NCBI GenBank assembly: GCA_963709585.1 | Contig: CAVPXI010000023.1 | Location: 64,001-128,000 of the forward strand | Reading direction: 5' to 3' | DNA from: Candidatus Dormiibacterota bacterium | GTDB taxonomy: Bacteria; Chloroflexota; Dormibacteria; Aeolococcales; Aeolococcaceae | Length of the DNA: 64,000 nt | In this document: piece by piece, positions 1,595-21,690 of the stretch | Layout of the letters: each line of letters starts with the position of its first letter | Position numbering within the stretch: the stretch's first letter is position 1 | The notes under the pieces: generated by a model | Seen by the model: only the letters and a program-made list of their open reading frames with translations | Told to the model about the DNA's origin: nothing | Databases searched by the model: none | Program-made: the position numbers and the translations under genes

Positions 1595-1711
1595 TCCGGT
1601 GATCATAGCGGTGGGGAAACACCTGTTCCCATCCCGAACACAGCAGTTAAGCCCACCAGCGCCGATGGTACTGCCCTGGCAACGGGGTGGGAGAGTAGGT
1701 CGTTGCCGGGT
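1595..1711 (+). rRNA. rrf: 5S rRNA
   Basis: CACCTGTTCCCATCCCGAACACAGCAGTTAAG...GCGCCGATGGTACTG...GGGAGAGTAGGTCGTTGCCGG; flanked by complementary GAGAGAGATA/TATCTCTCT processing stem. Confidence 0.97.
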
Positions 1712-1810
1712 ATCTCTCTTTTGTTTTCCGGGCTCTGAGGCGGATTTGTATATGAAACAGAGCAGGTAAGTGCTAAGGACATATAGCACGGCGCTAAAAG
1801 AGTAGATAAT
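1703..1810 (+). repeat. att junction 1 (5S 3' core plus element left-end motifs)
   Basis: Core 1703-1717; motif A AAACAGAGCAGGTAA at +52; motif B TAGCACGGCG at +81. Confidence 0.9.
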
Positions 1811-1817
1811 AGCGGCG

Positions 1818-2734
1818 ATGCCGAAGCGCGCCGCCGCCCCGCAGCTCACCCTCGAGGGCGCCTGGCAGAGCTTTGACCGCTCCCTCCGAGCCGAGGGACG
1901 ATCGCCCGAAACCCGGCGCGCCTATGCCCAATCGGTCGCTCAGTTCGGGGCCTATCTGCGCGACCGGAGCCTGGCGTCCGAGGTGGCCCTGATCGACCGC
2001 GGTGACCTCGAGAACTGGATCATCACCCTCCTCGACTCCCGCAAGCCCGCCACCGCAGCCACCCGTCACCACGCCCTGGCTCGCCTGTTCTCGTGGCTGG
2101 TGGCCGAGGGCGAACTGGATCGCTCCCCGATGGAGCGGATGGAAGTGCCGAAGGTCCCCGAGAATCCTCCGACCGTGCTGAGCATCGAGGACATGCGGCG
2201 CATCCTGGCGGTGTGCAAGGGCACCGAGTTCGATGAGCGCCGCGACGCGGCTATCTTGCGCGTGCTGGTCGATACCGGCCTGCGCCTCGCCGAGCTCACC
2301 GGCCTGACCTTGGATGACGTCGACCTCGATGAGGGGTTGGCAACAGTCACCGGCAAGGGCGGCGCCGCCGTGCCGTGCCACTCGGCGCGAAGTCGACGGC
2401 CGCACTCGACCGATACCTCAGGGTCCGCCACGCCCACCCGCACCATCGCAGCTCGCACCTTTGGCTCGGCCAGAAAGGTCCGCTGACCGCGACCGGGATG
2501 CGCCAGGTGGTGCAGCGCCGGGCGCGTCAGGCAGGGTTGGATCAGCGCATCTGGCCGCATCTGTTCCGGCATACCGGCGCACATCAATGGCTCGCCGCGG
2601 GTGGCTCCGAGGGCGACCTGATGAGCCTCTATGGGTGGCGATCGAGCGCGATGCTGCGCCGCTACGGCTCGTCAGCGGCAGCCGAGCGCGCCCGCAAAGC
2701 GCACGCCGACCTCTCGTTGGGCGACCGGGTATGA
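1818..2734 (+). CDS. Tyrosine recombinase/integrase (XerC/D-like), frameshift near 2365
   Basis: ORFs 1818-2486 and 2375-2734 join: SAM-like N-domain, TGLRLAEL (R), GKGG (K), HLFRH (HxxR), YGW, MLRRY (Y). Confidence 0.93.
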
Positions 2735-3099
2735 CCGGGCTGCTCGCCGCCCGGATGGGCAAGGACGGCGCCGCGGTGCTCTGTGGCCAACCGACCTGTC
2801 CGTGCGAGATCGGGAGGATGATGGGCGCGCATCTAGTCGTGGCGCGCGGCCTGGTCGAGGTCCGCGATCCCCTCGGCAAACCGTATGACCCGCCGTGCTA
2901 CGCCCAGCCTCGCAGTGTCGTCAAGCGTGTCCGCCACGCCGTGATCGCGGGGACGAGACCGACATTGCGGCCCAGGGTGCAAGCCGCGACGCCCGCGTGG
3001 ACCGTGGACCGCGTGGTCTTCCTGCCACAGCACCCGGAAGTGTGGGTGAAGTGCCCACGCTGCGGGAACCAGAGCAGGGTCCGCCCACGAGGTACCTAG
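2731..3099 (+). CDS. Hypothetical Zn-finger protein, coupled to the integrase
   Basis: ATGA overlap with integrase stop; CGQPTCPC and CPRCG motifs. Confidence 0.6.
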   Translation: MTGLLAARMGKDGAAVLCGQPTCPCEIGRMMGAHLVVARGLVEVRDPLGKPYDPPCYAQPRSVVKRVRHAVIAGTRPTLRPRVQAATPAWTVDRVVFLPQHPEVWVKCPRCGNQSRVRPRGT

Positions 3100-3101
3100 T
3101 A

Positions 3102-3127
3102 AGCACGGCGAACAAGACGCCGTGCTA
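3102..3127. promoter_or_regulatory. Inverted pair of att motif B (operator-like)
   Basis: AGCACGGCG-AACAAGA-CGCCGTGCT, the same 9-mer found at the att junctions. Confidence 0.6.
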
Positions 3128-3221
3128 GAGTACGTCCGTTCGTTATCAGTAGCGCCGGATCGTCGGCCTCTGCCCTTTGGCTTCCATCCCATCGCGGGAG
3201 TGAGCGGGGCGAGGTCACGGC

Positions 3222-3488
3222 ATGCCCCTCGATCCCGCTGCCCGAACGCTCCGAGCCCGCATTGGCGCTTTCGCCATGCACTCGAAACATCCCATCGAAG
3301 CGACAACTCGCGGCGGCCTGGACGCCGCCTGGCAACGCTTCGTTCTCGAGGTCGATCCGGACGGCTTACTGTCTGAGTCGGAGCGCACGCGGCGAGCCAA
3401 GGCTGCGCAGCGAGCTCATATGGCCAGGATCGCGCTTCGAAGTGTGCAAGCCCGACAGGCGGCGAAGTCTTCAGGAGAATCGGGGTGA
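3222..3488 (+). CDS. Small basic hypothetical protein of satellite-like elements
   Basis: VDPDGLLSESERTRRAKAAQRAHMARIALRS; stop overlaps next start. Confidence 0.7.
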   Translation: MPLDPAARTLRARIGAFAMHSKHPIEATTRGGLDAAWQRFVLEVDPDGLLSESERTRRAKAAQRAHMARIALRSVQARQAAKSSGESG

Positions 3489-5063
3489 TGGGCGAGGACC
3501 CTGCCAGGGGTCCCCTGCCCGACCACGACGACAACGCTGACGATAACACCGGCGCGGATGAGGCGTTGCTCGCGGCCGCGCAGCAAGTCATCGATAGGGG
3601 GTTAGATGTCGGTCCCAACCTCGCGGGGCTGACGCCCGAGGAACGGGCCAGCGCACTCGCGGCCTTCGCGCACGAGATCGTCCGGGTACCGCCTCCCCTC
3701 GCCGATGTGCTCGCGTCGACGTGCGAACTCCTGCGCCGCTACATCGTCCTACCTGCCGATCACTACTACCTGGTGGTCGCGCTCTGGATCCTGCACGCGC
3801 ACGCGATCACGGCAGCCGACACCACGCCGCGGCTGATCTTCAAGTCGCCCGAGAAGGAAAGCGGGAAAACCCGTTGCCTCGAGTGTCTCGACGCGCTGGT
3901 GCCGGCGCCGCTGCAGGTCATCAGCGTCACCACGGCCGCGATCTTCCGACTGCTCAAGGAGGAGCAGGTGACCGTGTTGTTTGACGAGGTGGACGCCATC
4001 TTCAATCCACGGGCGACCAACCAGGAGGATTTGAGGGCACTGTTGAACGCCGGGTATCGCCGCGGCGCGACGGTTGCTCGAAGTCGTCGGCGACGGTAAA
4101 CGGATGCGGGTCGAACGATTCCCGGTCTTTGCCGCCACCGCACTCGCCGCGATCGGCGATCTCCCCGACACGATCGAATCGCGGTCGATCATCGTCCCGA
4201 TGCGCCGGCGCGCACCCGATGAGACCGTGGCGAAGTTCCGTAGCCGCCAGGTCGCGCTCGAGGTCGTGGAATTGCGCGGCGACCTGGTCAACTGGGCATC
4301 GATTTATTCCGCGGAGCTCAGCAGAGCGGATCCTGTCATGCCGGACGGTCTTGAGGATCGGACCGAAGACTGCTGGGCGCCGCTGCTCGCCATCGCCGAC
4401 ATGGCCGGCGAGGAGTGGGGCGAGCGAGCCCGTGCAGCCGCACTGCTGATCGCCAAAGGTCGCGTCGCCGAGGATGCGTCCACAGGCGTCCGCCTGCTGG
4501 CCGATATCAAGACCGTCCTCGGCGACCGCGACCGCCTGTCCAGCGCCGGACTCTGCGCGATGCTCAACGCGCTCGAGGAATCGGGGTGGGGAGGATGGAA
4601 CGACGGCCGCGGCATCGGTCAACGTGACCTGGCGAAGCGGCTGAAGCGCTACTTCATTGAGTCGAAGAACATCAGGCTCGGTGACGGCTCGGTCCCGAAG
4701 GGTTACCTGCGCAGCGACTTTGACGATGCCTTCGCTCGCTACCTGCGCCTTCCTGCTCTTACAAGCGCTACAAGCGCTACAAGCGCTACGCAGGTTCGAA
4801 TTGACGTAGCGGACGTAGCGCCTGTAGCGGTTACTAGGGGAGAGAGAGAAGTCGGCCGGGAAGACGACGGTCACCCCACACAGGAGACATCCGCGACGCC
4901 GCTGGAGACGTTTCAACACCAGGTCGATGCAACGCTCACGAAGGTCAATGGACTGCAACCCGGCTGGCTTGAAGCCGATGATCAGCGCCGCCGCGAGTTG
5001 ATGGAGGCCGGCATGCGACACAAAGCGGAGCACAGTCGTCACACACATAGGAGGCACCCATGA
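3485..5063 (+). CDS. DUF3631-domain replication (primase/helicase-like) protein, frameshift near 4080
   Basis: ORFs 3485-4099 and 4074-5063; P-loop-like SPEKESGKT, VLFDEVD, LLNAGYRRG, DRTEDCWAPLLAIAD, KGYLRSDFDDAFARY. Confidence 0.85.
4760..4830. repeat. Convergent iteron-like arrays (putative origin of the element)
   Basis: (ACAAGCGCT)x3 giving CGCTAC x3 at 9-bp period, then GTAGCG x3 at 9-bp period in inverted orientation. Confidence 0.65.
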
Positions 5064-5314
5064 CTGACAAGCCCCAGAGCCCCAGTATGTTCACCCCTGA
5101 AGCCGCTGTCGCGACTGCCATCGCTCAGCTCGTCGACGTCTCCAACGGGCTCGGACTGATGGTCACCCTCGGGCGACACCTGGAGACTTCGGCCGCCAAC
5201 ACCGATGACATGCTGGACGCTCGGACGTACGTGCGCCGCGTGCAGGAGGCGCTGGCACACTGCCACGAGGCCGCCGACGCACTGCGAACCCTACTGCCGG
5301 CCAAGCCCGCGTGA
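5060..5314 (+). CDS. Hypothetical protein
   Basis: SD AGGAGG; ATGA overlap upstream and GTGA overlap downstream. Confidence 0.65.
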   Translation: MTDKPQSPSMFTPEAAVATAIAQLVDVSNGLGLMVTLGRHLETSAANTDDMLDARTYVRRVQEALAHCHEAADALRTLLPAKPA

Positions 5315-5685
5315 GCATCATGCGTCCGTGCCTCGATTGCGGCGCGCCGTACGAACCGCGGCGTGGCGTAGCACGTTGCCCACAGCATCAGCGTGAGTAC
5401 CGACGCACCCGTGAAGCACCCCTTTCGACGGCCGCCTGGCGCGCGCTCCGCGCCCGCAAGCTCAAGCGCAACCCGATCTGTGAGGACTGCGGACGACAGT
5501 GGGCTGTCCAGGTTCAGCACATCGTCCCACGGTCGATGGGCGGCGCCCTGCTGCCACCGCTGTCGGGACTGCGCGCCCTGTGTGTTGCCTGCCATGCGGT
5601 CTGGACAAACCGAGAGCGTCGCTGGGGCTACCGGCCGCCGCCAACTGTAGTGAACGACGACGACGAAGGACCGCGCGTCGCATGA
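5311..5685 (+). CDS. HNH endonuclease (terminase-associated, HK97 gp74-like)
   Basis: CLDCG...CPQH, WRALRARKLKRNPICEDCG, VQHIVPRSMGG, LCVACHAVWT. Confidence 0.85.
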   Translation: MSIMRPCLDCGAPYEPRRGVARCPQHQREYRRTREAPLSTAAWRALRARKLKRNPICEDCGRQWAVQVQHIVPRSMGGALLPPLSGLRALCVACHAVWTNRERRWGYRPPPTVVNDDDEGPRVA

Positions 5686-5850
5686 ACGCTGAGCATCGCA
5701 ACTCGCTTGAAAGCGCACAGCAAACCCCGAGGAATGGGGGGGCCAAATCCATCGCGTTTTTCCCTCCGGCGCGAACGCTGTTGGGCCACAATCCCGGTTA
5801 CACACTTTTCGCGATCGCAAAAGTCGTCGCACCAGGGGTGGGATGACCCC
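5686..5850 (+). other. Putative cos/packaging region
   Basis: Likely non-coding gap between HNH and TerL with GGGGGGG-CCAAATC, the usual cos position in HK97-type packaging modules (inference). Confidence 0.4.
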
Positions 5851-7302
5851 GTGAAAGCAGGCCCGAAAGCAGCCCCCACGGCCGAGCCGTTGACCTTTGA
5901 GGACCTTCCAGCGTCGGGTGGCGATCGGGTGGTTGCTTTCATCGAGCAGTACATCGTGCTGCCTCACGGGCGAGGGGCCAAGCGTCCGCTGGCGCTGCGT
6001 CCGTGGCAGCAGCGGATCATCCACGGCCTCTTTGACGAGCCGCGCCCGCGCCAGGGCCTGCTCAGCCTGCCACGTGGCAACGGCAAGACCACGCTCGCCG
6101 CGGCAATCGCTCTCTACGCCCTGTTTGGCGACGGCGAGGACTCGGCGCAAGTGCTCTGTGTAGCCTCGGATGAGCGCCAGGCCGCCATCCTATTTCGCAC
6201 TGCGCGGCGCATGATCGAGCTCGAGCCGCGACTGCTGGATCGCTGCCAGGTCTTCCAGGACCAGATTGTTGTGCCCTCCAGCGACGGGGTGCTTCGACCC
6301 TTGCCGGCTGAGAGCGCGGCCCTGCTGGGCTGGAATCCGAGCCTCTGTGTCGTCGACGAGTTGGCGGTCGTGACGGAGCGGGTGTGGGAGGCGGTGTCAG
6401 GCGCCGCCGGCAAGCGCGAGCGCAGTCTCACTCTGGCGATCTCCACCCCGCCCGAGAGCGTCGACAGCGTGATGTACGGCCTAGCCGAGCTTGGCCGCGA
6501 CGCTGACGACCCCAGTTTCTATTTCCAGGAGTTCTCCGCCCCCGCCGACTGCCTGATCGATGACGAGAGGGCGTGGGCAGTGGCTAACCCTGCGCTCGGC
6601 GATTTCCTGGCCATCGATGCGATGCGCAGCGTGCTGAGGACCATGCGTGAATCGACCTTTCGGCGCGCGCGTCTCGGTCAGTCGGTTTTTGGGAGCGAGA
6701 GTTGGATCAGCACCGAGCAGTGGAAGGCCGCGGCGGCCCCTGATCAGGAGATCCCTGAGGGCGCTGCGGTGTGTCTCGGCTTCGATGGATCCTTCTCCCG
6801 CGACGGGACTGCGCTGGTGGCCGTCTCTTGTGCGCGTCCGCACCACCTCCAGATAGTCGATCTCTGGGAGAAGACGTCCGACGACGGCCCGGCGTGGCGG
6901 GTGAGCACCGCCGATGTGGAGCAGGCGATCCGTGACGCCTGCACCACGTACCAGGTGCGGGCGATCGTGGCTGATCCGAGCTGGTGGGCGCAGACCATGC
7001 AAACGTTGGCGGGAGAGGGTCTTCCTGTGGTCGAGTTCCGGCCGAACTCGTCGCGGATGATTACCGCGAGCGAGAGATTCTACAAGGCGATTTGTGACGG
7101 CGACCTCAGCCACAGCGGCGAGCGCGACCTCACTCGCCACATCAGCAACGCGGTGCTACGGATGACGCCATCGGGACCGCGTGTCATGAAAGAGAGCAAG
7201 CAGAGTACCCGCCATGTTGACCTGGCCATCGCTGCGATCCTCGCGTACGACCAGGCGGCTCAGGTGGCACCCGAGCGCACGCCGCTGATCGCGTTCGTCT
7301 GA
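5851..7302 (+). CDS. terL: Terminase large subunit
   Basis: LRPWQ, Walker A PRGNGKTT, Walker B VVDEL, ISTP coupling motif, LGFDGSFSRDGT nuclease, VDLAIAAILAY; start GTG (VKAGPKA) inferred. Confidence 0.93.
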   Translation: MKAGPKAAPTAEPLTFEDLPASGGDRVVAFIEQYIVLPHGRGAKRPLALRPWQQRIIHGLFDEPRPRQGLLSLPRGNGKTTLAAAIALYALFGDGEDSAQVLCVASDERQAAILFRTARRMIELEPRLLDRCQVFQDQIVVPSSDGVLRPLPAESAALLGWNPSLCVVDELAVVTERVWEAVSGAAGKRERSLTLAISTPPESVDSVMYGLAELGRDADDPSFYFQEFSAPADCLIDDERAWAVANPALGDFLAIDAMRSVLRTMRESTFRRARLGQSVFGSESWISTEQWKAAAAPDQEIPEGAAVCLGFDGSFSRDGTALVAVSCARPHHLQIVDLWEKTSDDGPAWRVSTADVEQAIRDACTTYQVRAIVADPSWWAQTMQTLAGEGLPVVEFRPNSSRMITASERFYKAICDGDLSHSGERDLTRHISNAVLRMTPSGPRVMKESKQSTRHVDLAIAAILAYDQAAQVAPERTPLIAFV

Positions 7303-7352
7303 CATTTCTTTTGTTCAACGCTCGTTGCCGAAAACCACGCAAAGGAGAACCG

Positions 7353-7670
7353 ATGACTGACCGGATCAACGACCCGACCAAGCCGGGCTATTCCTGGATT
7401 GAGGTCAATCACCATGTCGCCGACATGGAGCAGGGCATCGCCGCCATCGTCGATGTGCGATGCCTGTTCGTCGGCCAGGACGGCAAGGTCGTCAACACGC
7501 CGGGAGTCGGCTTCCGGCTCGCCGACGCGGAAGCGCTTGCGGCTGACATTGTCGCCCACGCGCACGCGGCGTACCTCGAGGCCAGAGCTGCCGGCGGCGA
7601 CATGGAGGCCATCGAAGCGCTCGAGGAGGAAGCGCAGGGCTATGACGACGAGCGCAATTCTCGAAATTGA
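7353..7670 (+). CDS. Hypothetical protein (ORF-X; paralog at 11602)
   Basis: SD AAGGAG; C-terminus AYLEARAAGGDMEAIEAL...DDER resembles VHLEALADAGDAEAAELL...LDER of 11602-11925. Confidence 0.75.
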   Translation: MTDRINDPTKPGYSWIEVNHHVADMEQGIAAIVDVRCLFVGQDGKVVNTPGVGFRLADAEALAADIVAHAHAAYLEARAAGGDMEAIEALEEEAQGYDDERNSRN

Positions 7671-7687
7671 GGTGATACGATCAATTC

Positions 7688-7846
7688 ACGCTCCCGCGCT
7701 CACTGCTGAATGGCACTGAGCAGCCGCAAATCCGACAGCGTGTCGGTTTTGGGGGTAGGGACCGAAGGCGATACGCGCCGAGGCTGGCTGTGCCACCCGC
7801 GGAAGTAGCTGAACGGGCCGCGAAAGGCTCAATTTCAACGACTTCA
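7688..7846 (+). ncRNA. Candidate structured leader RNA of the capsid transcript
   Basis: Homologous to 12682-12820 with conserved stems and exchanged loops/hairpins; extended -10 TGATACGAT at 7673-7681. Confidence 0.65.
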
Positions 7847-7855
7847 ACGGGAGGC

Positions 7856-9331
7856 ATGAAAATGCCACGAGCACTCGCCGAGATTCGGCAAGAACAGACA
7901 CAACTGCGTGCGCGCGTCGGCCAACTGGTCGATGAGGCGCGCGAAATCGAAATCAAGCTCGAGGTCGACGGCGCCAACGACGGGCTCGAGGAGCGCAAAG
8001 CCAACGTGGAGCGCGGCAAGGCCAAGGCCAGCGCGCGACTGCAGGAGGTGGGCGCCGAGTACAGCGCGGCGATAACACGGATGGTCGAGAACGGCCAGAC
8101 GCAGACCGAGGCCGGCGTCAGCCTGGAGAACGCCTACACAGAGCGTCAGGACGACGACAGGACCGCGTCCATGGCGCCGCACCAGCGCCAGGCGGTCTCG
8201 GACGCCATGCGCGCCCTCGAGCGCCATCAGCGCGACGGTGTGCTGTTCACCACGGCGGCGGAGCGCATGGAGAATGTGGTTCGTCACGGTGACCCTACCG
8301 GCAGCACTGGGCGGTACATCGCCGCGGTGGGCGCGGACGCCTATGCGCGCGCGTTTGTCAAGCTGCTGACGTACGGCGACACGGCTGTGCTGCGCATGAC
8401 CTCTGAGGAACAGCAAGCCATGCAGCGCGTCAGCCAGGCCGAGTCCGAGCGCGCGATGTCCGACGGCACCACCACCGCCGGCGGATTCGGAATCCCGCTG
8501 ACAATTGATCCGACGATCAATTTGACGTCGTCGGGCGCGTTGTGTCCGGTCCGCGAGGTTGCGGACGTGCGCCAGATCGCCACCAACGAATTGCGCCTGG
8601 TGAGCGCTGACACGCCTGCGTCGGCATATGCAGCGGAATTGACCGAAGTGGCTGACGGCAGCCCGACTTTGGCGCAGCCGATCGCGGTCACCCAAAAAGG
8701 GCAGTCGTTTGTTCCATTTTCGATCGAGGTTGGGGCTGACTACCCTGGCCTGCAGAACGAGCTGCTCAAATTGCTCGCGGACGGTCGGGCGATATTGGAC
8801 AGTACGAAGATGCTTTCCGGCCTAGCAAGCGCCAACGAGCCGGTAGGCATCCTCGCCTCGACCGGCGGATTGACGACGTCGCAGCGCGTGCAAACGGCCG
8901 TTACTGGCACATTTGGCATCTCCGACGCGTACGCATTGCGAGAAGGCCTCGCCGCCACGCGGTTCTTTCAAAATGCGGTCTTTATGGCCCATCCGACCAC
9001 CATGGATGCGGCGTATCGACTGGTCGGCGGTGGGTCGACCACCGAGCCGCTGCCCATGCCTCAAGGCCGGAGCGGCCCGTTCGTCGGCACTCCGCAGTAC
9101 GGCTGGAATGCGATGGCAACCGGCACCACCACCGGTACCAAGATCCTCATCCTCGGCGACTGGAGCGGATACGTCGTCGCCGACAGGATTGGAGCTCAGG
9201 TTGAACTGGTGAGCCACCTGTTTGGAAGCGCGTCAAGGTTCCCAATCGGAGCTCGCGGGCTCTACTTCTACTGGCGCACGGGGACGTGTGTCCTGAAACC
9301 GAACGCATTTAGATATTTGGAAATGCGGTAA
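7856..9331 (+). CDS. Major capsid protein (HK97 fold) with N-terminal delta/scaffold coiled coil
   Basis: SD GGGAGG; RAMSDGTTTAGGFGIPLTID, AAELTEVADGSPT, VPFSIEV, EPVGIL, ILGDWS, PNAFRYL. Confidence 0.92.
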   Translation: MKMPRALAEIRQEQTQLRARVGQLVDEAREIEIKLEVDGANDGLEERKANVERGKAKASARLQEVGAEYSAAITRMVENGQTQTEAGVSLENAYTERQDDDRTASMAPHQRQAVSDAMRALERHQRDGVLFTTAAERMENVVRHGDPTGSTGRYIAAVGADAYARAFVKLLTYGDTAVLRMTSEEQQAMQRVSQAESERAMSDGTTTAGGFGIPLTIDPTINLTSSGALCPVREVADVRQIATNELRLVSADTPASAYAAELTEVADGSPTLAQPIAVTQKGQSFVPFSIEVGADYPGLQNELLKLLADGRAILDSTKMLSGLASANEPVGILASTGGLTTSQRVQTAVTGTFGISDAYALREGLAATRFFQNAVFMAHPTTMDAAYRLVGGGSTTEPLPMPQGRSGPFVGTPQYGWNAMATGTTTGTKILILGDWSGYVVADRIGAQVELVSHLFGSASRFPIGARGLYFYWRTGTCVLKPNAFRYLEMR

Positions 9332-9333
9332 CC

Positions 9334-10168
9334 ATGGCCGGACAGAGTCGCACCCTACGGGGACGTCGACTATGCAGATCCAGGTCTCCAAGCCGACAAG
9401 GTCAAGCGCTATCCGATCGATACCAAGGCGCACGCGAAGGCCGCGTGGACGCTCATCAACATGAGCTCGCACGCCTCGCAGTATTCGGCTGCGGACCTCG
9501 CGCTGGTCAAGGGCAGGATCCTGACGGCGTGTCATCACTTCGACGTCGAGGTGAGCGAGAACGCCCTGCCGCGCGAGGGGTTGATCCGGGCGCTCTCGGG
9601 CCTGGAGATCCGCGACGATGGCGGCGCGGATGGCAGTCCGGGGACATTGACCGGATACCTCGCGGTGTTCAATCAATGGAGCGAAATCAACTCGGCCCAC
9701 GAAGGTCACTTCATGGAGCGGATGGCGCCGGGATCGTTCGCCCGGACCATCGCTGACAACGCGTCACGCATGAAGGTCACCTTCAATCACGGTAAGGATC
9801 CGCAGTTGGGCGACAAGGTGCTGGGCATCCCCACCGTCCTCGAGGAGGACAGCCGCGGAGTGCGCTATGAGGTGCCGCTGTTCGACACATCATGGAATCG
9901 CGACCTTGCTCCCGGATTGAAGGCCGGCGCCTACGGCTCCAGCTTCCGGTTCAACGTGGCCGCCGACGACTACAACAAGAAGGCCAGGGTCGCTCCGCAC
10001 AACCCCAGAGGCTTGCCGGAGAGGACGGTCAAGGAAGTCCGCATGCAGGAGTTCGGCCCGGTCACCTTCCCCGCATACCCGGGCGCGACCGCGGGGATGC
10101 GCTCGCTGACGTCGCCCGCGCGCGGTCAATCCGTGTTCGAGGAGTTCCTACAGCTGATCGGAGGCTGA
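9334..10168 (+). CDS. HK97 prohead protease with N-terminal DUF6582-like domain, +1 frameshift near 9340
   Basis: Frame of 9461 extends upstream to PYGDVDYADPG...KRYPIDTKAHAKAAW; protease LTGYLAVFNQWSEI, FNHG, GSSFRF, EFGPVTFPAY. Confidence 0.88.
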
Positions 10169-10334
10169 GCGTCGTGAAGGCGGTGTCCGTCGGTTTCGTT
10201 CACTCCGGGCCGCGGCACCGTCTTCACGGCGCCAACCATGGGGGCGGTTGCGTCGGTTCGAAGGGCACACCCACTCCGGCCGACGCGCCGCCTTCCCGTC
10301 GACGAAGGCCGGCGCTGACGGCTACCATGCGGCG

Positions 10335-10583
10335 GTGAGCGATGCCCCTGACGATGAGATCGAGATCGGCTGGGAGAGCTATGGACCTGGCGATAAGCCT
10401 CGCGACCTGACGTTCACGTTCAGGGAGCGCGGCGTCCATCTCGGGTCGCGCGAGGTGGAGTGCGACGGAGATCGATACTTCATCGTGACGCGTCCCGACG
10501 GGAGCGTCCAGCGGTACCGCCAGAACCCGGAGTCAGGCAAGCTCGAAAAGGTCGACGAGATCCCCTGCGGTGATCCGGAGTGA
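10335..10583 (+). CDS. Hypothetical small acidic protein
   Basis: Open frame with GC-typical codon usage ending just before the att right-end motif. Confidence 0.55.
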   Translation: MSDAPDDEIEIGWESYGPGDKPRDLTFTFRERGVHLGSREVECDGDRYFIVTRPDGSVQRYRQNPESGKLEKVDEIPCGDPE

Positions 10584-10588
10584 GTAGC

Positions 10589-10765
10589 AAACAGAGCAGA
10601 TAATTCGGCCTCGCTCGCTCATGACACGCAAGATGCGAACGTCGTCATAGCACGGCGTACAGTCCCGGATACTTGCCGGGTATCTCTTTCTTGTTTACCG
10701 GCCCCTCGCGCGGTTTGGTATTCAAAACAGAGCAGGTAAGTGCTCGAGCCCCATAGCACGGCGCG
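10589..10765 (+). repeat. att junction 2 (right end of unit 1, left end of unit 2)
   Basis: Motif A at -84, motif B at -25, core 10673-10687, motif A at +52, motif B at +81. Confidence 0.9.
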
Positions 10766-10937
10766 TTCGTGCCGGCGACATCTGGCGAAGCCTGCCCGGG
10801 ACGCAGCAGTGGATCCAGTTGGTGTCGGTGTGGAACCATCAACCGCCGAGCTCGAGGGCGGATGGCGCCGAGTACCAGGTGGCCGCGTCATCCCGCCGCA
10901 CAACTCCGGGCTCACAGTCAGAGTTGATTGGGCGCCG

Positions 10938-11528
10938 TCAGCGAGCGTGCCAACCAGGTCCTTGCGCCCCGGTCGCGGAGACGGACTCTTGCCGCCGCTC
11001 GAGCTTGTCTTTGACGTTCCCGATTTGCCCACATCGTTGGCATTCGGTCACAGTCTCGATCAGATCGTAGTCCTGTTTGACCGCTTCCAATGTCGGACGA
11101 TGCGTAGACGAGCGCTGGTGCCAATCATGACCAAACACCTCGCAGCGCAACCGGAAAGGACTCCACCGCCCTCTCTCATATCGCGTCCGGAAAGGTTTGG
11201 GTGTTGCCAAAGTGACCGGGGCTGCCGTTGTCTCGCTGAGGAACGTTTGCAGATCGTTTGTATGACGGCGGATCTGCAGCCGAATGACTGTCGCGCTGCC
11301 AATGACGCCTGCGTAGACAAGCAATGTCCACCAGGGGGAAATAAAGAGGCTAGCGACGACGAGAACGAGCCCAATTCCCCCGACGAGGAGTCCGTCGAAT
11401 GTGTCTCGGATCTTCGCGACGCGGGGAAAGGGGGGGCGGTAGTCGGGCAGAAAGTACCAGCCGAGACCGCCCAGCACGAGTACCCATCCGAAGAGCGTCA
11501 CAGCCCACCAGGGGATCGTTCCAAGCAT
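10938..11528 (-). CDS. Membrane protein with C-terminal Zn-ribbon-like motif
   Basis: Three hydrophobic segments, then CEVFGHDW...CQRCG. Confidence 0.6.
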   Translation of the reverse strand: MLGTIPWWAVTLFGWVLVLGGLGWYFLPDYRPPFPRVAKIRDTFDGLLVGGIGLVLVVASLFISPWWTLLVYAGVIGSATVIRLQIRRHTNDLQTFLSETTAAPVTLATPKPFRTRYERGRWSPFRLRCEVFGHDWHQRSSTHRPTLEAVKQDYDLIETVTECQRCGQIGNVKDKLERRQESVSATGAQGPGWHAR

Positions 11529-11601
11529 GCGTTGGACTTTAAGCCTGCCGAAACCGATCTGCGAAAGACGTTGGAGCCCTTGTAACAAGGAGAACGAGCC
11601 C

Positions 11602-11925
11602 ATGACCGACGAAATTGACGAGATCACCAACCGCCCCGGCAGACCCCTGAGCACGCTGGAAGTCATCGGGCGGCAGGACCCGGAGCCCGCCGTGGTGCTC
11701 ATCCTGCGATTCAACCGTGGGGATGGCGTCATCGACACGATCAGGCTGGCCCACAGCCCGGAAGAGGCGCGCCGCCTGTCCGACTATCTGTTGGGGACCG
11801 CGGATGCGGTACACCTCGAGGCACTGGCCGACGCTGGCGATGCGGAGGCCGCGGAGCTGCTCGCCGAACTGAAGAGGCAGCTCGACGAGCGCGATCCGAT
11901 TCCCGAGTGGTACGCGGATCTGTAA
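11602..11925 (+). CDS. Hypothetical protein, paralog of ORF-X (7353)
   Basis: SD AAGGAG; similar length, N-terminus MTD.I....PG and C-terminus. Confidence 0.75.
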   Translation: MTDEIDEITNRPGRPLSTLEVIGRQDPEPAVVLILRFNRGDGVIDTIRLAHSPEEARRLSDYLLGTADAVHLEALADAGDAEAAELLAELKRQLDERDPIPEWYADL

Positions 11926-11982
11926 GCGCGATGAGGCACGGGTCACAAAGGCAAGCGGACAGTGTTGGGCTAGGCTTGCGCG

Positions 11983-12612
11983 ATGGCCCTGTCGGTGCGG
12001 ACCGTCATCCCTTTCTATCGGCTCGGGTTCGGCCTACTCGTGCTCGTGGCCATCCTTATACAGATGGTGTCGCTCGGCCAGTCGGGTGTCCTCGACCCGC
12101 TGCATTACCTCACCTACTTCACCAACCTCAGCAACATGATCGCGGCCGTCGTATTTATCGTTGGCGCGACGGGCTGGCGCTATGTGCGGTCACCCGCCTT
12201 CGACGTGGTGAGGGGCGGTGCGGTCGTGTACATGACCATCACGGGCGTCGTCTTTGCAGTCCTTTTGAGCGGTGTCAATGTCGATGCCCAACTGCGATGG
12301 GTCAACGATCTCATCCACCAGGTGTTTCCAATTGTTGTCCTTGCTGATTGGTTGCTCGACCCGCCCAAGGCACGGGTGACGCTCAGGCAAGGGGTGCTGT
12401 GGCTGACTTTCCCGGTCGCCTGGGCGGCATACGAACTGATCCGCGGAGCGACCTCGGGGAAGTATCACTATCCGTTCCTGAATCCGGTCAACGGCGGGTA
12501 CGGAAGCGTCGCCCTCTACGTGGTCGTGATCTCCGTATTCACGCTCATTGTCTCCGGAGTTGTCGTGTGGCTCGCAAACGCTCGGAGGCACCTCGAGCAC
12601 GAGCCCGCATAG
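11983..12612 (+). CDS. Pr6Pr (FAR-17a/AIG1-like) membrane protein
   Basis: YFTNLSN, HQVFP..VLADWL, YHYPFLNP; about six TM helices. Confidence 0.85.
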   Translation: MALSVRTVIPFYRLGFGLLVLVAILIQMVSLGQSGVLDPLHYLTYFTNLSNMIAAVVFIVGATGWRYVRSPAFDVVRGGAVVYMTITGVVFAVLLSGVNVDAQLRWVNDLIHQVFPIVVLADWLLDPPKARVTLRQGVLWLTFPVAWAAYELIRGATSGKYHYPFLNPVNGGYGSVALYVVVISVFTLIVSGVVVWLANARRHLEHEPA

Positions 12613-12681
12613 GAGAAACTCCCGGCCACATCTCCGGACGCTAAGAGAGAGCGCCGAACGATCCCGTGCTAAGATGAGCCT

Positions 12682-12820
12682 ACGATCCGCGTACCGCTGC
12701 TGAGCTGCACCGGACAGACGCCCGCGGCGGTGAGGACCGAAGGCTGCAAGCGCCGAGGCTGGAACGTCCACCCGCGGAAGTCATGTGAACGCCGCATTGG
12801 CGGCGACTTCGACGACTTTA
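12682..12820 (+). ncRNA. Second copy of the candidate capsid leader RNA
   Basis: GGACCGAAGGC...GCGCCGAGGCTGG-N5-CCACCCGCGGAAGT shared with 7759-7806; extended -10 TGCTAAGAT at 12667-12675. Confidence 0.65.
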
Positions 12821-12821
12821 C

Positions 12822-12875
12822 CTCGAAATCAAGTTGGACATCGACGGCGCAGACGCCGGCCTCGAGGAGTGGGAA
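12822..12875 (+). pseudogene. Capsid gene remnant
   Basis: Encodes LEIKLDIDGADAGLEE versus IEIKLEVDGANDGLEE in the capsid of unit 1. Confidence 0.7.
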
Positions 12876-13043
12876 TCGCGCCCTTCAGCGGAGGACGGTC
12901 CGCGCCCGACATTCAACGGTCCGGCCGGTATTCCTTCCCGACCTACTCGACGCGCGATCGGACGTGAGTTACGCTACGCACCTTTGGAGCTGGCGTCGTG
13001 GGGACGTTTAGCTGCGGAGAGCGTTCGACGCCTTTGGCGCGGC

Positions 13044-13072
13044 TGTAACCGCTGATGACTTGCTCCCGTTGA
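13044..13072 (+). promoter_or_regulatory. ECF-sigma-type promoter TGTAACC-N16-CGTTGA
   Basis: Same motif and spacing upstream of paralogs at 27569 and 29141. Confidence 0.65.
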
Positions 13073-13085
13073 CCGGGTAGCCGCC

Positions 13086-14004
13086 ATGAAACTCACCAAC
13101 GTCATCGGCACTGTGATCGCCGCGTTGAGCCTCGCGGCTGGTGGATCGACAGTCGCGCCGACTGTTTCTCCAACTTCCGCGCTAACTGTCGGGGCAACCG
13201 TAGCGCCGACTCCCAGCGCAACGCCCACCGCGACACCCACGCCAACTCCGATCGCCACGCCCACTCCGTCTGCAAGGCCTACGCCCGCACCGCCTGTGCT
13301 CGTGCTCGTCGAAACGTGCGATGGCTCCGCAAACGCTGACAACTATGGCAGCGTGACGTTCTCTGGTGACACACCCGGCTTCGACTTCGTAGTGTACGGT
13401 CCTGGGCGATTGGGTGGATGGGCAGGGGCAACGACAGCAGATGCAAGTGGCGACGGAACAGTCAGCGACCTTACTGCTGATGACTATGAGTTCAACAACT
13501 TCGCACCCGCCGATATGCCGGGAACACTCACCGGCTCGTTCGCCATCGTGGCGTGCCCGCCGACGCCCACGTATAGCGTCACACAGACATGCGCCGCCCC
13601 TGGTAGTGCTCAGGGCGGGAGCGTGATGATTACCTTCGCAGGTGGCACGCCTGACACCGTTGTTATTGACGGCAATACCGTGGACGTGACCGGCAACCCG
13701 TTCACCTATGGGCCCCTCACCGTGGGCGATCACAGGATCACCGTTGAAGGTTTCGTCTGGCCAGTCACCATTACCGCGTGCGTATCTACGCCGCACTTGA
13801 CCGTCACAGTCTGACGGTGCTCCGGGCCGCGTGGCATGGACCGGCACCAAGACGGGTGACACACTCTTTATCGGCGCCGGCGCGTTTTCCGTCACTCTTC
13901 CGACTGGCACCGGTGGCACGTCTGGACCACTCCCAGCTGGGACGTTCGACACCGAGAGTGGCAGCGGCACGTCAGCGCTCGGCGGCCCAAAACACAGTAG
14001 ATAA
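13086..14004 (+). CDS. Secreted Pro/Thr-linker protein with Cys-bracketed repeat domains (lipoprotein paralog), probable frameshift near 13812
   Basis: MKLTNVIGTVIAALSLAAGGST (lipobox Cys replaced by Gly); repeats TC..GSVTF...ACP; another frame continues DGAPGRVAWTG to a stop in att motif A. Confidence 0.7.
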
Positions 14005-14096
14005 TTCACCCACCGACGCTCGAGACACTCGAGATCGGAAAGCCGAGGTAGCACAGCGCTAAACCCGTGGATGGTTGCCGGGTATCTCTCTTTTTT
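13990..14096 (+). repeat. att junction 3 (right-end motifs only)
   Basis: Motif A AAACACAGTAGATAA at -85, motif B TAGCACAGCG at -26, core 14075-14089; downstream motifs absent. Confidence 0.88.
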
Positions 14097-14134
14097 ACTC
14101 CACGCCGAGGACTGGAACGTCGACTGCACGGTCG

Positions 14135-14444
14135 ACGGGATGACGTTCCCGAGGAGGAGTTACCGGACGTGACTGACGCTGCGCACGCTGTGGTCCAGGA
14201 GGCCAAAGACGCCGGCGTGTTTGTGTTCGCCGGCGGACTGCAGGACCACCAGGAAGCGAGCGTCGTGGCCATCGACGGGACGATCACCGACGGCCCGTAC
14301 CCGGAGAGCAAGCAGTTCCTCGGCGGATTCACAGTCGTCGACGTGCCCTCACGCGCCGAGGCGCTGGAGTGGGCTGCCAAGCTCGCGGTCGCCTGCCGAT
14401 GTGCTCAAGAGGTTCGCGAGATCCTGTTCGACCCGACCGTCTGA
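14135..14444 (+). pseudogene. YCII/DGPF family protein, 5'-truncated
   Basis: ITDGPYPESKQFLGGFTVVDVPSRAEALEWA; native N-terminus missing. Confidence 0.75.
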
Positions 14445-14500
14445 TCGCAGACCCTCAAGCGGATCAACGATCCCGCCGCCCTCCAAGACAACTGATCCTC

Positions 14501-14677
14501 AAACACAGCAGATAAGTGGGAGCCGTACGCTCGACCCACCCAGGATCAGAGTAGCCGAGGGCACAGCGCTAAACGCCTGGATGGTTGCCGGGTATCTCTC
14601 TCTTGTTTTCCGGCCTCTGGCGCTGTTCTGTATTCGAAACCGAGCAGGTAAGCGCTCAGGCGACATAGCACGGCGCC
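14501..14677 (+). repeat. att junction 4
   Basis: Motif A at -84, motif B at -26, core 14585-14599, motif A at +52, motif B at +81. Confidence 0.9.
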
Positions 14678-14728
14678 AAGCGAGGCGACCCCCCCAACGC
14701 TCCACATCGATCTGAGAGATTAGGCGCG

Positions 14729-15724
14729 ATGCTCAGATACATCGTCAGCCGCGTCCTGCAGGCGGTGCTGGTCGTCATCGGCGTCGCGACAGTGGTGTTC
14801 TTCCTCGAGCGTCTGATGCCCGGCGACCCGGGAAGGATCATGCTGGGACCGCGCCTCGGCCCGGCCCAGTGGGCGATCTACGACCATCAGAACGGGTTCG
14901 ACCAGCCGATCCCGGTCCAGTACATCGACTTCCTCGCGAATCTTTTCCACGGGAGGATCGCCTTCACGCCGCCGGGATTCGCCGACCAGATCGACCCCTT
15001 CGAGGGTGGCGTGGTCGACGTCGATCTCCAGTCGCTGGTTAAGGGACCGATGATCAACTCGCTGATCCTGACTGGTCTGTCGACACTGTTGGTGATAGCC
15101 CTCACCATCCCCATCGCCCTCTACGAAGCGGCACGGCGGCGCCGGCGTGGAGCGCACCTCTCAAACATCATCTCGATGACGCTGTACTCGATCCCGCCGT
15201 ACCTACTGGGCACGTGGCTCATCCTGGTTCTTGCGACGGATCTGAACTGGATCAATCTGAATACGCCGAATTGGAGCACGGGCGATGTACTCGCCGATCC
15301 GGCGGCGCTGATTCTCCCCACGCTGACCCTGTCAACGGGAACGGTCGCGCTGTTCACCCGCTATCTCCGGGCGTCGACGATCGATGAGCTGACCAAGGAC
15401 TACATCACAACGGCGCGAGCCAAGGGCGCCTCCCGCTCCCGAGTCAGCCTGCGCCATGCGCTCCCCAACGCTTCGTTACCGATCATCACCCTGCTCGGCA
15501 CGCGCCTTCCCCAGATCTTCGGTGCCCAGCTCGTCGTGGAGGTGCTTTTTGGATATCCGGGGCTGGGAACCACGCTGTGGAGCGCAGCGATGAATCACGA
15601 CTTCTACTCCATGCTGGGAGCAATCCTGATCGCTGGCGTTCTCACCACTCTCGGCTCGCTGATCACCGACTTGATCTACGCGGCGGTCGATCCTCGTATC
15701 CGATATGTCCATGCTCGGAGCTGA
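14729..15724 (+). CDS. Orphan peptide/nickel ABC transporter permease (OppB/DppB family)
   Basis: MLRYIVSRVLQ, PGDPG, GFDQPIPVQY, EAA-like DYITTARAKGAS, RHALPNA, DPRIRY. Confidence 0.92.
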   Translation: MLRYIVSRVLQAVLVVIGVATVVFFLERLMPGDPGRIMLGPRLGPAQWAIYDHQNGFDQPIPVQYIDFLANLFHGRIAFTPPGFADQIDPFEGGVVDVDLQSLVKGPMINSLILTGLSTLLVIALTIPIALYEAARRRRRGAHLSNIISMTLYSIPPYLLGTWLILVLATDLNWINLNTPNWSTGDVLADPAALILPTLTLSTGTVALFTRYLRASTIDELTKDYITTARAKGASRSRVSLRHALPNASLPIITLLGTRLPQIFGAQLVVEVLFGYPGLGTTLWSAAMNHDFYSMLGAILIAGVLTTLGSLITDLIYAAVDPRIRYVHARS

Positions 15725-15736
15725 TTCGCGCGCCCC

Positions 15737-15886
15737 AAAGACAGCAGATAATTCGGGCTCGCTCGCTAAGGACATGCAAGATACATAGCGTGCGATAGCA
15801 CGGCGCATAGTCCCGTATGCTTGCCGGTATCTCTCTTGTTTTCCTGGCAGCAACCGAGCTTGCGTTGTCGAAACTGAGTAGATAAC
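15737..15886 (+). repeat. att junction 5 (more diverged)
   Basis: Motif A at -84, motif B at -25, core TTGCCGGTATCTCT 15821-15834 (one G fewer), motif A AAACTGAGTAGATAA at +50. Confidence 0.85.
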
Positions 15887-16061
15887 TGACTCAGCGTCGA
15901 TCGCACACCGCTTGGGGAGTTGGTAACCACGCGTTGCTGCCTCCGACGGCTCTACGAGGGGCGGCGGGGCACCCGTAACCAGGGCGGCCATCGCTCGGTT
16001 CCCTCCGTGCAACCCGATCGTCTGACGACCCTCTGTACTGGCCTGAGGGAAAGGAGCACGG

Positions 16062-16960
16062 ATGAGATCCGCAGTCTTCGCTGGAGCCATCTTTGCAACG
16101 GTGCTCGCGTCAGGCTGTGCGAGCACCCCTGGCACAAACCTCGGCTCGCCGTCAGCGAGCGCCCGGGCGACCCAGCCGTCGTCGACGGCGCCATCAACCA
16201 CGCCAACCCCCGGCACACCGTCGTCGACCTGCTCGAAGGCGACGCCGCTCGATGCCGCAGTGGTGCTGACGGATTGGACGCATGCGCCGGGCTACACCGT
16301 GAACCTCGTGGCTGCAAACGGCTGCGTCATCGCATCGGCCACCGCCCGCACCTGGTCTGGATACTCGGCCACGGCCGGTCAGCCCGTCAGTCTGCCGACG
16401 AGCGAGTCCGCCACGCGCGTGTATTTCCTCGACGGCGATTCGACGCTGCGGTTTCTCGGCCTGGACGGCAGCAAAGGTGTCGCAGCCCAACTGCCCGGAT
16501 CCTCGAGCAGCAAGGTTGCGTTCAGTGTGAGTCCCGACAACACCCGCCTTGCCTTCTCGGTGATGAGTTGGGGTTCGGATGAGCGCCATTTCACGGAGCA
16601 GTCGTATGTCGAGGACCTCGCGACGGGCGCAGATCGCACGGAGCTCTTCACCCTGACTGGCGGCAATGTTGCAGAGGAGCCGATTGGATGGATAAACGGT
16701 GACATCGTGTTCGGCCTGCTGCTCTCGGCCAACCAATACGCTGCGGGTCCAACTCCGCCGATATTCGACGCCTACCACGTAGCGAACCCGCTCACCGGTA
16801 AGCGCCTGACCAGCATCTGCGCCGGGTCCGGCAACGCCTGGGTCTTCGACGGCGGTGACTACACGACACTGCCGACGAGGACAGCAGTGCTCTGTCGAGT
16901 CGGAGAGCAGTACCAGCCGGACGGAACCCTCGAGCTAGTTTCCTGGTCGGGAAGCCGGCG
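16062..16960 (+). CDS. Lipoprotein with beta-propeller-like domain (paralog of 26373), 3' end disrupted
   Basis: SD AAGGAG; lipobox ASGC; YFLDG...FSVSPDNTRLAF similar to YFLDG...FAVSPDQTTLVF; runs into a peptidase fragment. Confidence 0.7.
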
Positions 16961-16965
16961 ACCAT

Positions 16966-17313
16966 GTGAGCGTGTCGATTACCCGCGGTTCGAATGGCTG
17001 GACCATCACGGTGAAGGATCCCCGGTCGGGCACATTCACGACCGTAAAGGCCTACTCAGGCCCGGGTACCTCGGCGGAGTGGATCCAGGAGGCTCCCACC
17101 GTCGGCGGCCGCATCGCCACGCTTGCCAGATACGGCGAGGCGACCTTCGACCCGGGGACGGCGAATGGGAAGTCACCCGGCCTGGTCAGCAGCGATGGCG
17201 GAGTGATGGTCCAGAAGAGCATCCAGGTCTCGACACCTTCGGTGCCGGACAAGGACTTTGACGGGTTCAACATCAAGTACGCCAGCACCGCGCCGGCGGC
17301 TCCGTCGAGCTGA
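16966..17313 (+). pseudogene. C-terminal fragment of a G1 family glutamic peptidase
   Basis: SAEWIQEAP, LARYGEATF, STPS..D.DGFNIKY; N-terminal half absent. Confidence 0.7.
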
Positions 17314-17424
17314 CCCGACCCTCCTCCGTTCTTTCATTGCGGCTGCGGCGCTGGTCAGCATCTGTTTGTGACACTGCAGGTCCGTCGATCGGCGGTGCTC
17401 GCAACCGCGTAGACTTGAAGCGCG

Positions 17425-18775: not shown

Positions 18776-18830
18776 ACCGCCTCGGGGCAACGCCCCGGAT
18801 CAGCGGGACCCTCGATTAGACTCACCGCTC

Positions 18831-19371: not shown

Positions 19372-19379
19372 GCGCCGGG

Positions 19380-20131: not shown

Positions 20132-20247
20132 GTGTCAATTCTCCACCCAACGGCGCGATCGCCGCGCTCGTTTCTGGGAGTATGTCATAAGACGCTGTCA
20201 TTTGACACGAGAGGCCGTCGGCAGCGACAATTACGACCAGAAAAGTC

Positions 20248-21351: not shown

Positions 21352-21479
21352 CCGGCTCGCCGCGGTGCCGCGTGTACGCGACCGGACGGACGGCACCCTG
21401 GACGGGCGAGCATGATCTCCTCGATAAGGTATGCAGATTCCACGCTGGGGAGCGGGATGATGCCATCGGGACAGTGCCC

Positions 21480-21653: not shown

Positions 21654-21690
21654 CAGCGGCCATCCACGTCCGGGTCTACTGCGCATCGGC

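Follow-up and report, generated by a model that had tools for sequence, protein, structure and literature searches.

Stable-RNA genes are classic landing sites of integrative elements. In streptococci, cis-mobilizable elements (CIMEs), which are deletion derivatives of ICEs (integrative and conjugative elements), lie as integrase-less units flanked by attachment (att) sites beside an integrase-bearing element, and recombination between the outer sites moves the composite. The islands of Dehalococcoides, as far as the available part of their description goes, are arranged in tandem downstream of the tmRNA gene ssrA and are bounded by a 20-bp repeat of its 3'-end (McMurdie et al. 2011, PMC3146451). 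An integration module is present in sixteen of these islands and absent from the other 15, which were proposed to be cis-mobilizable (PMC3146451). The accessible description of the TIGER/Islander resource gives tRNA and tmRNA genes (33.8%), coding sequences and intergenic DNA as targets of islands and excludes islands below 2 kb (PMC12424338). Here we describe a tandem array of four units and a probable fifth behind the 5S rRNA gene of a Candidatus Dormiibacterota bacterium. It is located in a stretch of 64,000 nucleotides (contig CAVPXI010000023.1, positions 64,001 to 128,000), which was analysed as a whole and is called the window below. We consider it likely that the array arose by tandem site-specific integration at the tail of the 5S rRNA gene by tyrosine recombinases and that its integrase-less units persist as substrates.

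The tail of the 5S rRNA gene is repeated in the window

The genome of the window (G000) is a metagenome-type assembly of 3.52 Mb in 24 contigs. It was compared with a set of congeners, one genome per species, whose genomes and loci bear the other G and L numbers. The window opens inside the 23S rRNA gene, the 3' part of which occupies 1-1431, and the 5S rRNA gene follows on the plus strand at 1595-1711 (Rfam RF00001, 107.3 bits). A 15-mer, TTGCCGGGTATCTCT, is found at 1703-1717 and recurs exactly at 10673-10687, 14075-14089 and 14585-14599, always on the plus strand. Four matches compare with 0.04 expected and were reached in none of 100 shuffles, and a search of the whole genome showed that the exact copies are confined to this locus. 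Because Rfam ends the 5S rRNA gene at 1711, this attachment core consists of the final 9 nt of the gene as its left part and 6 nt beyond it; core copy 1 is an attL-type junction of the 5S rRNA gene and unit 1. The original prediction, made from the letters of the window, had counted five recurrences. Four are exact, while the fifth (15821-15834, plus strand) is genuine but one G short (TTGCCGG-TATCTCT). The resulting units 1 to 4 measure 8,970, 3,402, 510 and 1,236 bp, in line with the predicted 9.0, 3.4, 0.5 and 1.2 kb.

Two motifs accompany the cores. The pattern of motif A has seven matches in the 3.52 Mb of the genome, all on the plus strand and all at this locus (1755, 10589, 10725, 13990, 14501, 14637 and 15871), and a degenerate eighth copy is located at 15737. 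Motif B occurs at 1784, 10648, 10754, 14049, 14666 and 15796, and one more copy, at 14560, is degenerate. Ahead of cores 2 to 5 motif A stands at -84/-85 and motif B at -25/-26, and behind cores 1, 2 and 4 they stand at +52 and +81, respectively. Core 3 has neither motif downstream; core 5 is followed by motif A (15871) and a decayed motif B. The predicted offsets were therefore borne out, with confinement to the locus genome-wide, and the degenerate boxes at 15737 and 14560 were added to the set.

The repeats might also be regulatory or terminator modules, i.e. 5S ends copied together with a T-run and spread by duplication. A terminator-like CCCGG-N7-CCGGG with a T-rich run lies at 10664-10680, each junction holds such a hairpin and T-run, and in relatives free of cassettes the 5S rRNA gene is directly followed by a classical hairpin terminator. 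Yet the region shows no enrichment of terminator-like sites (10 found vs. 7.8 expected), the ~100 bp of conserved arm boxes described below exceed what a terminator needs, integrases adjoin the junctions, and the homology of cassettes between species opens exactly at the core. We regard an origin as terminator modules as very improbable.

A conserved arm adjoins the core

Upstream of the core lies an arm of ~100 bp, the copies of which are ~75-85% alike. A profile search with nhmmer detected four strong copies in the G000 genome (88-108 bits), all at this locus. The arm was present at 19 of 19 internal junctions in 11 genomes, 15 times at full length (88-110 bits) and four times in part. Its invariant boxes read AAAcAgAGcAGATAA ... 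CGCTCG ... gAGAT ... TAGCACgGCGC ... AGTCCCGGATGC, then the core, then CT.TTGTTTTCC. At many junctions there is in addition a right-hand arm of the form GTATTCGAA.CTGAGcAGgTAA ... TAGCACgGCGC. That the boxes are invariant in 15 junctions of nine species suggests selection for protein binding. Decayed arms further downstream were looked for with the same profile; outside of junctions it gave only three weak partial matches, at 3276-3336 in G017, at 297-343 in G016 and at 15867-15905 in the window.

The 7 nt ahead of CCGGG differ between the 5S rRNA gene (GTCGTTG) and the arms (ATGCTTG and similar). Thus a crossover would fall within the shared 15 bp. A T/C difference 3-4 nt after the core, seen between 5S-linked and arm-linked copies of one and the same cassette, was considered as a crossover mark and discarded as inconsistent across junctions.

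The same site is used in relatives

Of the 42 genomes of the genus that were searched, 31 had a match to the 5S rRNA gene. In 28 of these 31, G000 included, a 123-nt query made up of the 5S rRNA gene and the six core bases beyond it matched from end to end at 100% identity, and the single-contig genomes G019 and G126 have one 5S copy each. The sequence right after the core varies from species to species. Ten of the 42 congeners (G000 again included) carry two to five same-strand copies of the core on the contig of the 5S rRNA gene, and G121 carries one degenerate copy. In its exact form a 13-mer of the core was present at least twice on one contig in eight genomes of the genus. Among 119 genomes from the other 27 genera of the order there was no such case, though the tail is conserved there. 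A scan of metagenome contigs added 18 loci with the same architecture. When public contigs were searched with the arm pattern, 8 of 11 matching stretches were titled Candidatus Dormibacteraeota/Dormiibacterota; of the remaining three, two are on one contig titled Chloroflexota and one is titled Saccharimonadales. The interval that begins behind the single-copy 5S rRNA gene and extends to the conserved genes ahead of tRNA-Leu is probably a hot spot of integration.

A metagenome-type assembly in 24 contigs invites the question of an artefact around the rRNA repeat. However, the rrn operon is embedded within a contig of 261 kb, the units differ in sequence, and the same layout was found in the single-contig 3.3-Mb genome G019 and in many contigs of independent records. 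The probability of an artefact is practically negligible, and the mis-assembly that the original prediction had named as its caveat is excluded by the layout in G019 and the independent contigs.

Among the congeners, G012 alone has two 5S matches (C11:108786-108908 and C13:2352-2474), with a cassette only at the C13 copy; the second 5S could belong to a second rrn operon or to a mixed bin. In the single-core genomes G006, G014, G021, G126 and G128 (L034, L037, L030, L040 and L026) a GC-rich hairpin and T-run terminator directly follows the 5S tail. In G014 and some other single-core genomes this terminator is followed by sequence resembling the right-hand arm.

Unit 1 carries an integrase and phage genes

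Unit 1 (1718-10672) has all its genes on the plus strand. It begins with the integrase-proximal P' arm (1718-1817, plus strand), which contains motif A at 1755-1769, motif B at 1784-1793 and a third A-like box at 1795-1809 that ends 8 nt ahead of the integrase ATG. The integrase starts ~100 nt from the 5S core. The Xer-like tyrosine integrase (1818-2734, plus strand) is read in two frames, 1818-2486 and 2333-2734, because of a 1-nt frameshift near 2359 in a GGCGGCGCCGCC run. Pfam assigned PF02899 (Phage_int_SAM_1) and positions 3-66 of PF00589 (Phage_integrase) to 1818-2483, and positions 63-170 of PF00589 to the downstream piece at 2333-2731. By eye we read the motifs HLFRH, GW and RRY in the downstream frame and GLRLAEL in the N-terminal piece. 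The integrase matched XerD/XerC-like models of NCBIfam below the cut-offs of those models, and the comparison with XerD in the PDB (1a0p) gave an E of 6e-16. Four public sequencing runs were compared with the window as contigs, which break at repeats. In run X1 a contig of 98% identity and depth 5.4 contains an additional C behind 2359 that would bring both pieces of the integrase into one frame. Thus the break is strain-specific or an assembly error.

On the same strand follow a DUF3631 protein as the candidate for a replication module (4074-5060; Pfam PF12307, E 2e-52), an HNH endonuclease (5311-5682; Pfam; PHROG 144, E 5e-20), a large terminase (5707-7299; Pfam TerL_ATPase and TerL_nuclease; PHROG 9, E 3.5e-97), an HK97-type major capsid protein that is extended at its N terminus (7790-9328; Pfam Phage_capsid; NCBIfam TIGR01554, 97 bits) and a fusion of DUF6582 with a prohead serine protease (S78) (9332-10165; Pfam; PHROG 80). 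The distal P arm together with core copy 2 closes the unit at 10584-10700 (plus strand; nhmmer arm profile, 108 bits). Among the remaining open reading frames (ORFs), which have no assigned family, searches with Pfam, PHROG and NCBIfam revealed no portal, tail or lysis family. Unit 1 shows the marks of a phage satellite: an integrase, a candidate replication module and a partial packaging and head module in ~10 kb, with no tail or lysis genes found. Judged by this gene content, it is a 9-kb element that resembles a phage satellite or a mini-prophage; a satellite had been predicted along with the absence of an integrase from the other units. In IMG/VR no close relative of unit 1 was found; the best TerL match had 36% identity on a 4.2-kb contig, and there was one weak integrase fragment besides.

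The original prediction had named homologous integrases away from the 5S rRNA gene as a point against itself, and this applies in part: the nearest homologues of the window's integrase (38-41% identity) start beside tRNA genes in four of five loci (one of the four from an unpublished genome). Yet these homologues are distant, and their position at tRNA genes points to a lineage-specific change of target.

A second integrase was seen in G019. The first unit there (5.5 kb) has at its end the gene of a tyrosine recombinase that is oriented away from the arm, its ATG being 23 nt from motif A. The G019 recombinase has only 27% identity to that of the window, and the two are unrelated integrases at one site. 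The G019-type integrase is present in 5 of the 42 genus genomes; in the four besides G019 it resides at other places in the chromosome. That motifs A and B might be arm sites shared throughout the family of either integrase was ruled out, since both motifs are absent from all 10 loci that hold homologues of these enzymes.

The other units are small and lack a recombinase

Pfam detected no recombinase in units 2 to 4, in agreement with the prediction that only unit 1 encodes an integrase. Unit 2 (3.4 kb; 10688-14074, plus strand) has a P' arm, with motif A at 10725 and motif B at 10754, and a P arm at 13983-14074. It encodes a membrane protein of the Pr6Pr family at 11983-12609, and its other ORFs have no family in Pfam or NCBIfam. 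We considered unit 2 as a decayed satellite and rejected this: there are two short DNA matches to unit 1 without protein similarity, and a tblastn search of 11 unit-1 proteins against 10688-21700 gave no match at E 1e-3.

Unit 3 (0.5 kb; 14090-14584, plus strand) consists of a YCII-domain gene reaching to 14441 (Pfam) and a P arm from 14495. The 5' end of the gene is missing and the P' arm is gone, too. Unit 1 of G024 shares 84.5% identity with it, and this homology begins 29 nt inside the ORF of G024. In unit 4 (1.2 kb; 14600-15820, plus strand) a P' arm (A at 14637, B at 14666) and a P arm from 15732 enclose a full-length OppB/NikB-type ABC permease at 14729-15724 (Pfam BPD_transp_1 and BPD_transp_1_N; NCBIfam). 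The gene is packed tightly between motif B at 14666 and motif A at 15737. The permease appears intact and is an orphan: neither a second permease nor an ATPase or a binding protein is encoded in its vicinity. A probable fifth unit (15835-17300, plus strand) has a decayed P' arm with motif A at 15871 and no recognisable right end. It contains a gene for a 399-aa protein (16062-17261, plus strand). Because this gene is a bounded cassette in G003 and G117, the array continues past 15886 with decayed sites.

In relatives the cargo comprises SDR and TetR, YCII, SAM methyltransferase, glyoxalase, RibD_C, GMC oxidoreductase, beta-helix protein, patatin and phosphoesterase genes, and one unit of 10.7 kb carries dynamin-like, IclR, MFS and Na/H-exchanger genes. 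Cargo genes are found on both strands; antisense are SDR, patatin, GMC oxidoreductase, glyoxalase, phosphoesterase and dynamin. Pfam was applied to the arrays with ORFs filtered by the G+C content of third codon positions (GC3), and a recombinase of another kind could have escaped this filter.

The original prediction had taken the array for an integron-like capture platform, with the satellite integrase acting in trans and possibly with expression by rrn read-through. In such a platform the 5S core would correspond to attI and arm plus core to attC, a chromosomal or satellite integrase would act in trans on single cassettes, and cassettes would be expressed from the rrn promoter. Units of 0.5-2.2 kb with one or two genes tight between sites, such as the permease at 14729-15724, fit this picture, as do the diverse accessory cargo and the rise of new units at the 5S-proximal position. 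However, with the rrn operon (23S-5S) located upstream, the site has no fixed integrase as its neighbour. Integron-integrase models remained far below their cut-offs (TIGR02249, 39 bits vs. 265; NF011946, 22 vs. 435). The arm is conserved in sequence and has no conserved fold: RNAalifold on 15 arms yielded -7.2 and -4.5 kcal/mol for the two strands with no supported helix on either, which ruled out an attC-like structure. Furthermore, cargo genes supported by Pfam are found on either strand, and a terminator-like hairpin and T-run occur at each junction, so that expression by rrn read-through is unlikely as a rule. Taken together, the integron reading fails three defining features (a resident intI, a folded attC and a common orientation) and is an analogy only; as an account of the array we judge it improbable.

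Cassettes have moved between species

Both content and order of the cassettes differ among relatives, as a comparison proposed with the original prediction revealed. The SDR and TetR cassette is the second unit in G019 and the first in G020, G012 and G129, and shows 95.4-95.6% identity against 72.6-77% in the flank. A methyltransferase cassette is first at L077 and second in G117, there behind the cassette of a 425-aa protein, with 97.3% identity for the cassette and 71.5% for the far flank. The 425-aa cassette itself is 91.3% identical between G003 and G117 (flank 71.4%). For YCII the identity of unit 3 of G000 with the cassettes of G024, G011, G007 and G012 is 81-84.5% (flank 65-70%), and for the GMC oxidoreductase, which lies behind the last core in G003 and in unit 1 of G011, it is 87.4% (flank 72%). 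In the SDR and TetR and the methyltransferase cassettes the homology between species opens at the first base of the core. Thus cassettes that are far more alike than their flanks and occupy differing positions in the arrays indicate horizontal movement of the cassettes.

Run X1 provided further data. One contig with a depth of 17.6, i.e. at chromosomal level, matches the window up to 1726 and resumes at 10647, which skips 8,920 bases of unit 1. The depth of X1 over unit 1 was 0-4 as compared to 12-22 downstream. From this contig and the drop in depth we concluded that most of the X1 population lacks unit 1 or has other DNA there. Another X1 contig (depth 15.2) joins 14678 to 14579 with six letters between, so that a match to the B box is connected to a core. 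It probably represents an arm-core junction unlike all four in the window, and the X1 population therefore seems to hold a further unit that this assembly lacks. The joints 1720>14622, 14096>14614 and 10696>15868 were examined as rearrangements and rejected, because their short sides of 21-26 nt start in repeats and represent arm variants only. Runs X2, X4 and X5 had low or zero depth over unit 1 and no bridging contig; they were not counted as evidence, and the small-share runs X6-X13 were left out of account with regard to habitat.

Several observations weigh against integration at the core by these enzymes. In the available DNA of 9 of the 11 congeneric arrays and of 18 of the 18 metagenome loci neither integrase type was found with GC3-filtered ORFs in Pfam, and tblastn of both integrases against 29 further loci retrieved the gene of G019 only. 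Both enzymes are simple and Xer-like, with no arm-binding domain detected that would read motifs A and B, and the reading frame of the window's copy is interrupted. A P'-like arm also follows the sole or last core in several genomes, which may be native flank or belong to last cassettes without right ends. Modules past the last core that have no sites (GMC oxidoreductase, glyoxalase and patatin) are likewise shuffled between species, at 87-94% identity. In G012 (L059, 2200-2330) and G020 (L058, 2210-2350) an SDR and TetR body of ~93% identity is combined with clearly different arms; homology falls ~25 nt past the TetR stop codon, which a site-specific exchange at the core does not predict. In the contigs of the runs, broken at repeats, no circular or empty-site junction was resolved.

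Some of these points would be expected if exchange with DNA taken up from relatives were mainly homologous. The invariant 23S-5S would then be the left homology arm, either the ~120-bp arm/core repeats or the conserved genes would be the right one, and site-specific integration would only have seeded the repeats. The 5S rRNA gene and core, identical over 123 nt in 28 of 31 genomes, and arms of ~75-85% similarity offer the substrate. The arms swapped relative to bodies in G012 and G020, the exchanged core-less modules and the lack of an integrase in most arrays agree with such a route. Yet it leaves unexplained why exact 15-bp copies of the 5S tail stand beside arms that are not of 5S origin and why two different integrases sit exactly at junctions, and the invariant boxes suggest selection for protein binding. 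We consider predominantly homologous exchange unlikely. Because of the swaps of arm and body, the missing arm-binding domain, the flank that resembles a right-hand arm and a crossover placed only to within 15 bp, it stays a partial rival.

The rRNA operon of the window and its relatives

The 1,431 nt of 23S rRNA in the window cover positions 1913-2925 of the 2,925-position Rfam model. Complete 23S rRNA genes span 3.7 kb in G019 (L021:4215-7917) and 4.0 kb in G003 (L022:8447-12453); being much longer than the model, they hold large insertions. The end of the 16S rRNA gene and the start of the spacer in G003 match a group I intron (61.6 bits; L022:7069-7696). Relatives have two tRNA genes inside the 16S-23S spacer (L021:8136-8297; L022:8060-8222) and a gene for the signal recognition particle (SRP) RNA a few kb upstream of the rrn operon.

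Discussion

The units of the array are bounded by repeats of the 3'-end of their target, and in G000 and G019 integrase-bearing and integrase-less units share att sites, as is characteristic of tandem islands. The predicted use of the 5S 3'-end as an attachment site and the accretion of units in tandem are supported. In the proposed mechanism the attachment site of a landing element would share 15 bp with the 5S tail. A tyrosine recombinase would join the circular element to the core and regenerate the 5S end, and a second core copy would be left at the far end of the insert, behind the ~100-bp arm of the element (A...CGCTCG...GAGAT...B...CCCGGAT). Repeated insertion, mostly at the 5S-proximal core, would stack units head to tail. 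Unit 1 would have brought its integrase. Units 2 to 4 and the decayed fifth are without a recombinase and have retained arm and core; two of the integrase-less units also keep the integrase-proximal arm. Because arm and core are retained, we propose that these units are still substrates. Recombination of non-adjacent cores may carry them along in cis with a neighbour that bears an integrase (accretion and cis-mobilisation); alternatively, they may move with an integrase supplied in trans. Older, distal units would lose their sites and become fixed, for which the truncated YCII gene, the gapped core 5 and the site-less modules beyond argue. Catalysis by both integrases, the position of the crossover, the route of mobilisation and transfer between cells are what we infer from these sequences. 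A related possibility, to which we give less credit, is cassette exchange on the 5S tail, in which single-gene cassettes, each closed by a protein-binding arm of ~100 bp and a 15-bp copy of the tail, would be inserted and removed singly by Xer-like integrases. These would not reside at the site but arrive for a time with satellite-like elements, which would make the array an "integron with a nomadic integrase".

Throughout one genus of a soil phylum that is uncultured, the 5S site is in use, apparently by two or more unrelated integrases. Its parts are defined and open to testing: the core measures 15 bp, the arm of ~100 bp contains invariant boxes, and the integrase occurs in nature as an in-frame allele. 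The locus is therefore a tractable model for the movement of integrase-less cargo between species. It possibly includes a new pair of integrase and att site aimed at a universally conserved gene. A literature search, covering few subscription journals, yielded tRNA and tmRNA genes as examples. It yielded no paper that describes attachment at the 5S rRNA gene of a bacterium, and none about mobile elements of Candidatus Dormibacterota.

By its gene content unit 1 is reminiscent of capsid-encoding satellites, the capsid-forming phage-inducible chromosomal islands (cf-PICI), and of small prophage-like elements of the phiRv1/phiRv2 type in actinobacteria; unlike these, it resides in the 5S rRNA gene of Candidatus Dormibacterota. 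With the CIMEs of streptococci the array shares integrase-less, att-flanked units beside an integrase-bearing element, but most units here have no trace of element genes and resemble cargo of one or two genes. Ordered small cassettes that are each closed by a recombination site, with the newest nearest to the fixed site and with diverse cargo, recall integrons, from which the array differs in having no resident intI, no folded attC and neither a common orientation nor a shared promoter.

As in tyrosine-integrase islands at tRNA and tmRNA genes (PMC12424338), insertion would take place in the 3'-end of a stable-RNA gene and regenerate the gene, and tandem arrays occur. The target here is an rRNA, which the accessible part of the TIGER/Islander description does not mention, and units of 0.5-1.9 kb would be missed there by design, because islands below 2 kb are excluded (PMC12424338). 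The closest described system is that of tandem site-specific islands with integrase-less, cis-mobilizable derivatives, as seen, to the extent of the available description, at Dehalococcoides ssrA (PMC3146451). Common to both are a single-copy essential small-RNA gene as the target, direct repeats of its 3'-end, a conserved motif just upstream, an integration module next to attL in some islands, strain-specific content and distal regions that are apparently fixed (PMC3146451). In contrast to the tmRNA gene and the CcrB-like serine recombinase reported there (PMC3146451), a 5S rRNA gene is combined here with an Xer-like tyrosine recombinase, single-gene units go down to 0.5 kb, the conserved arm extends over ~100 bp, and two unrelated integrases are found at one site. 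What is new in the 5S array is the target, cassettes of 0.5-2 kb and two unrelated integrases at one site.

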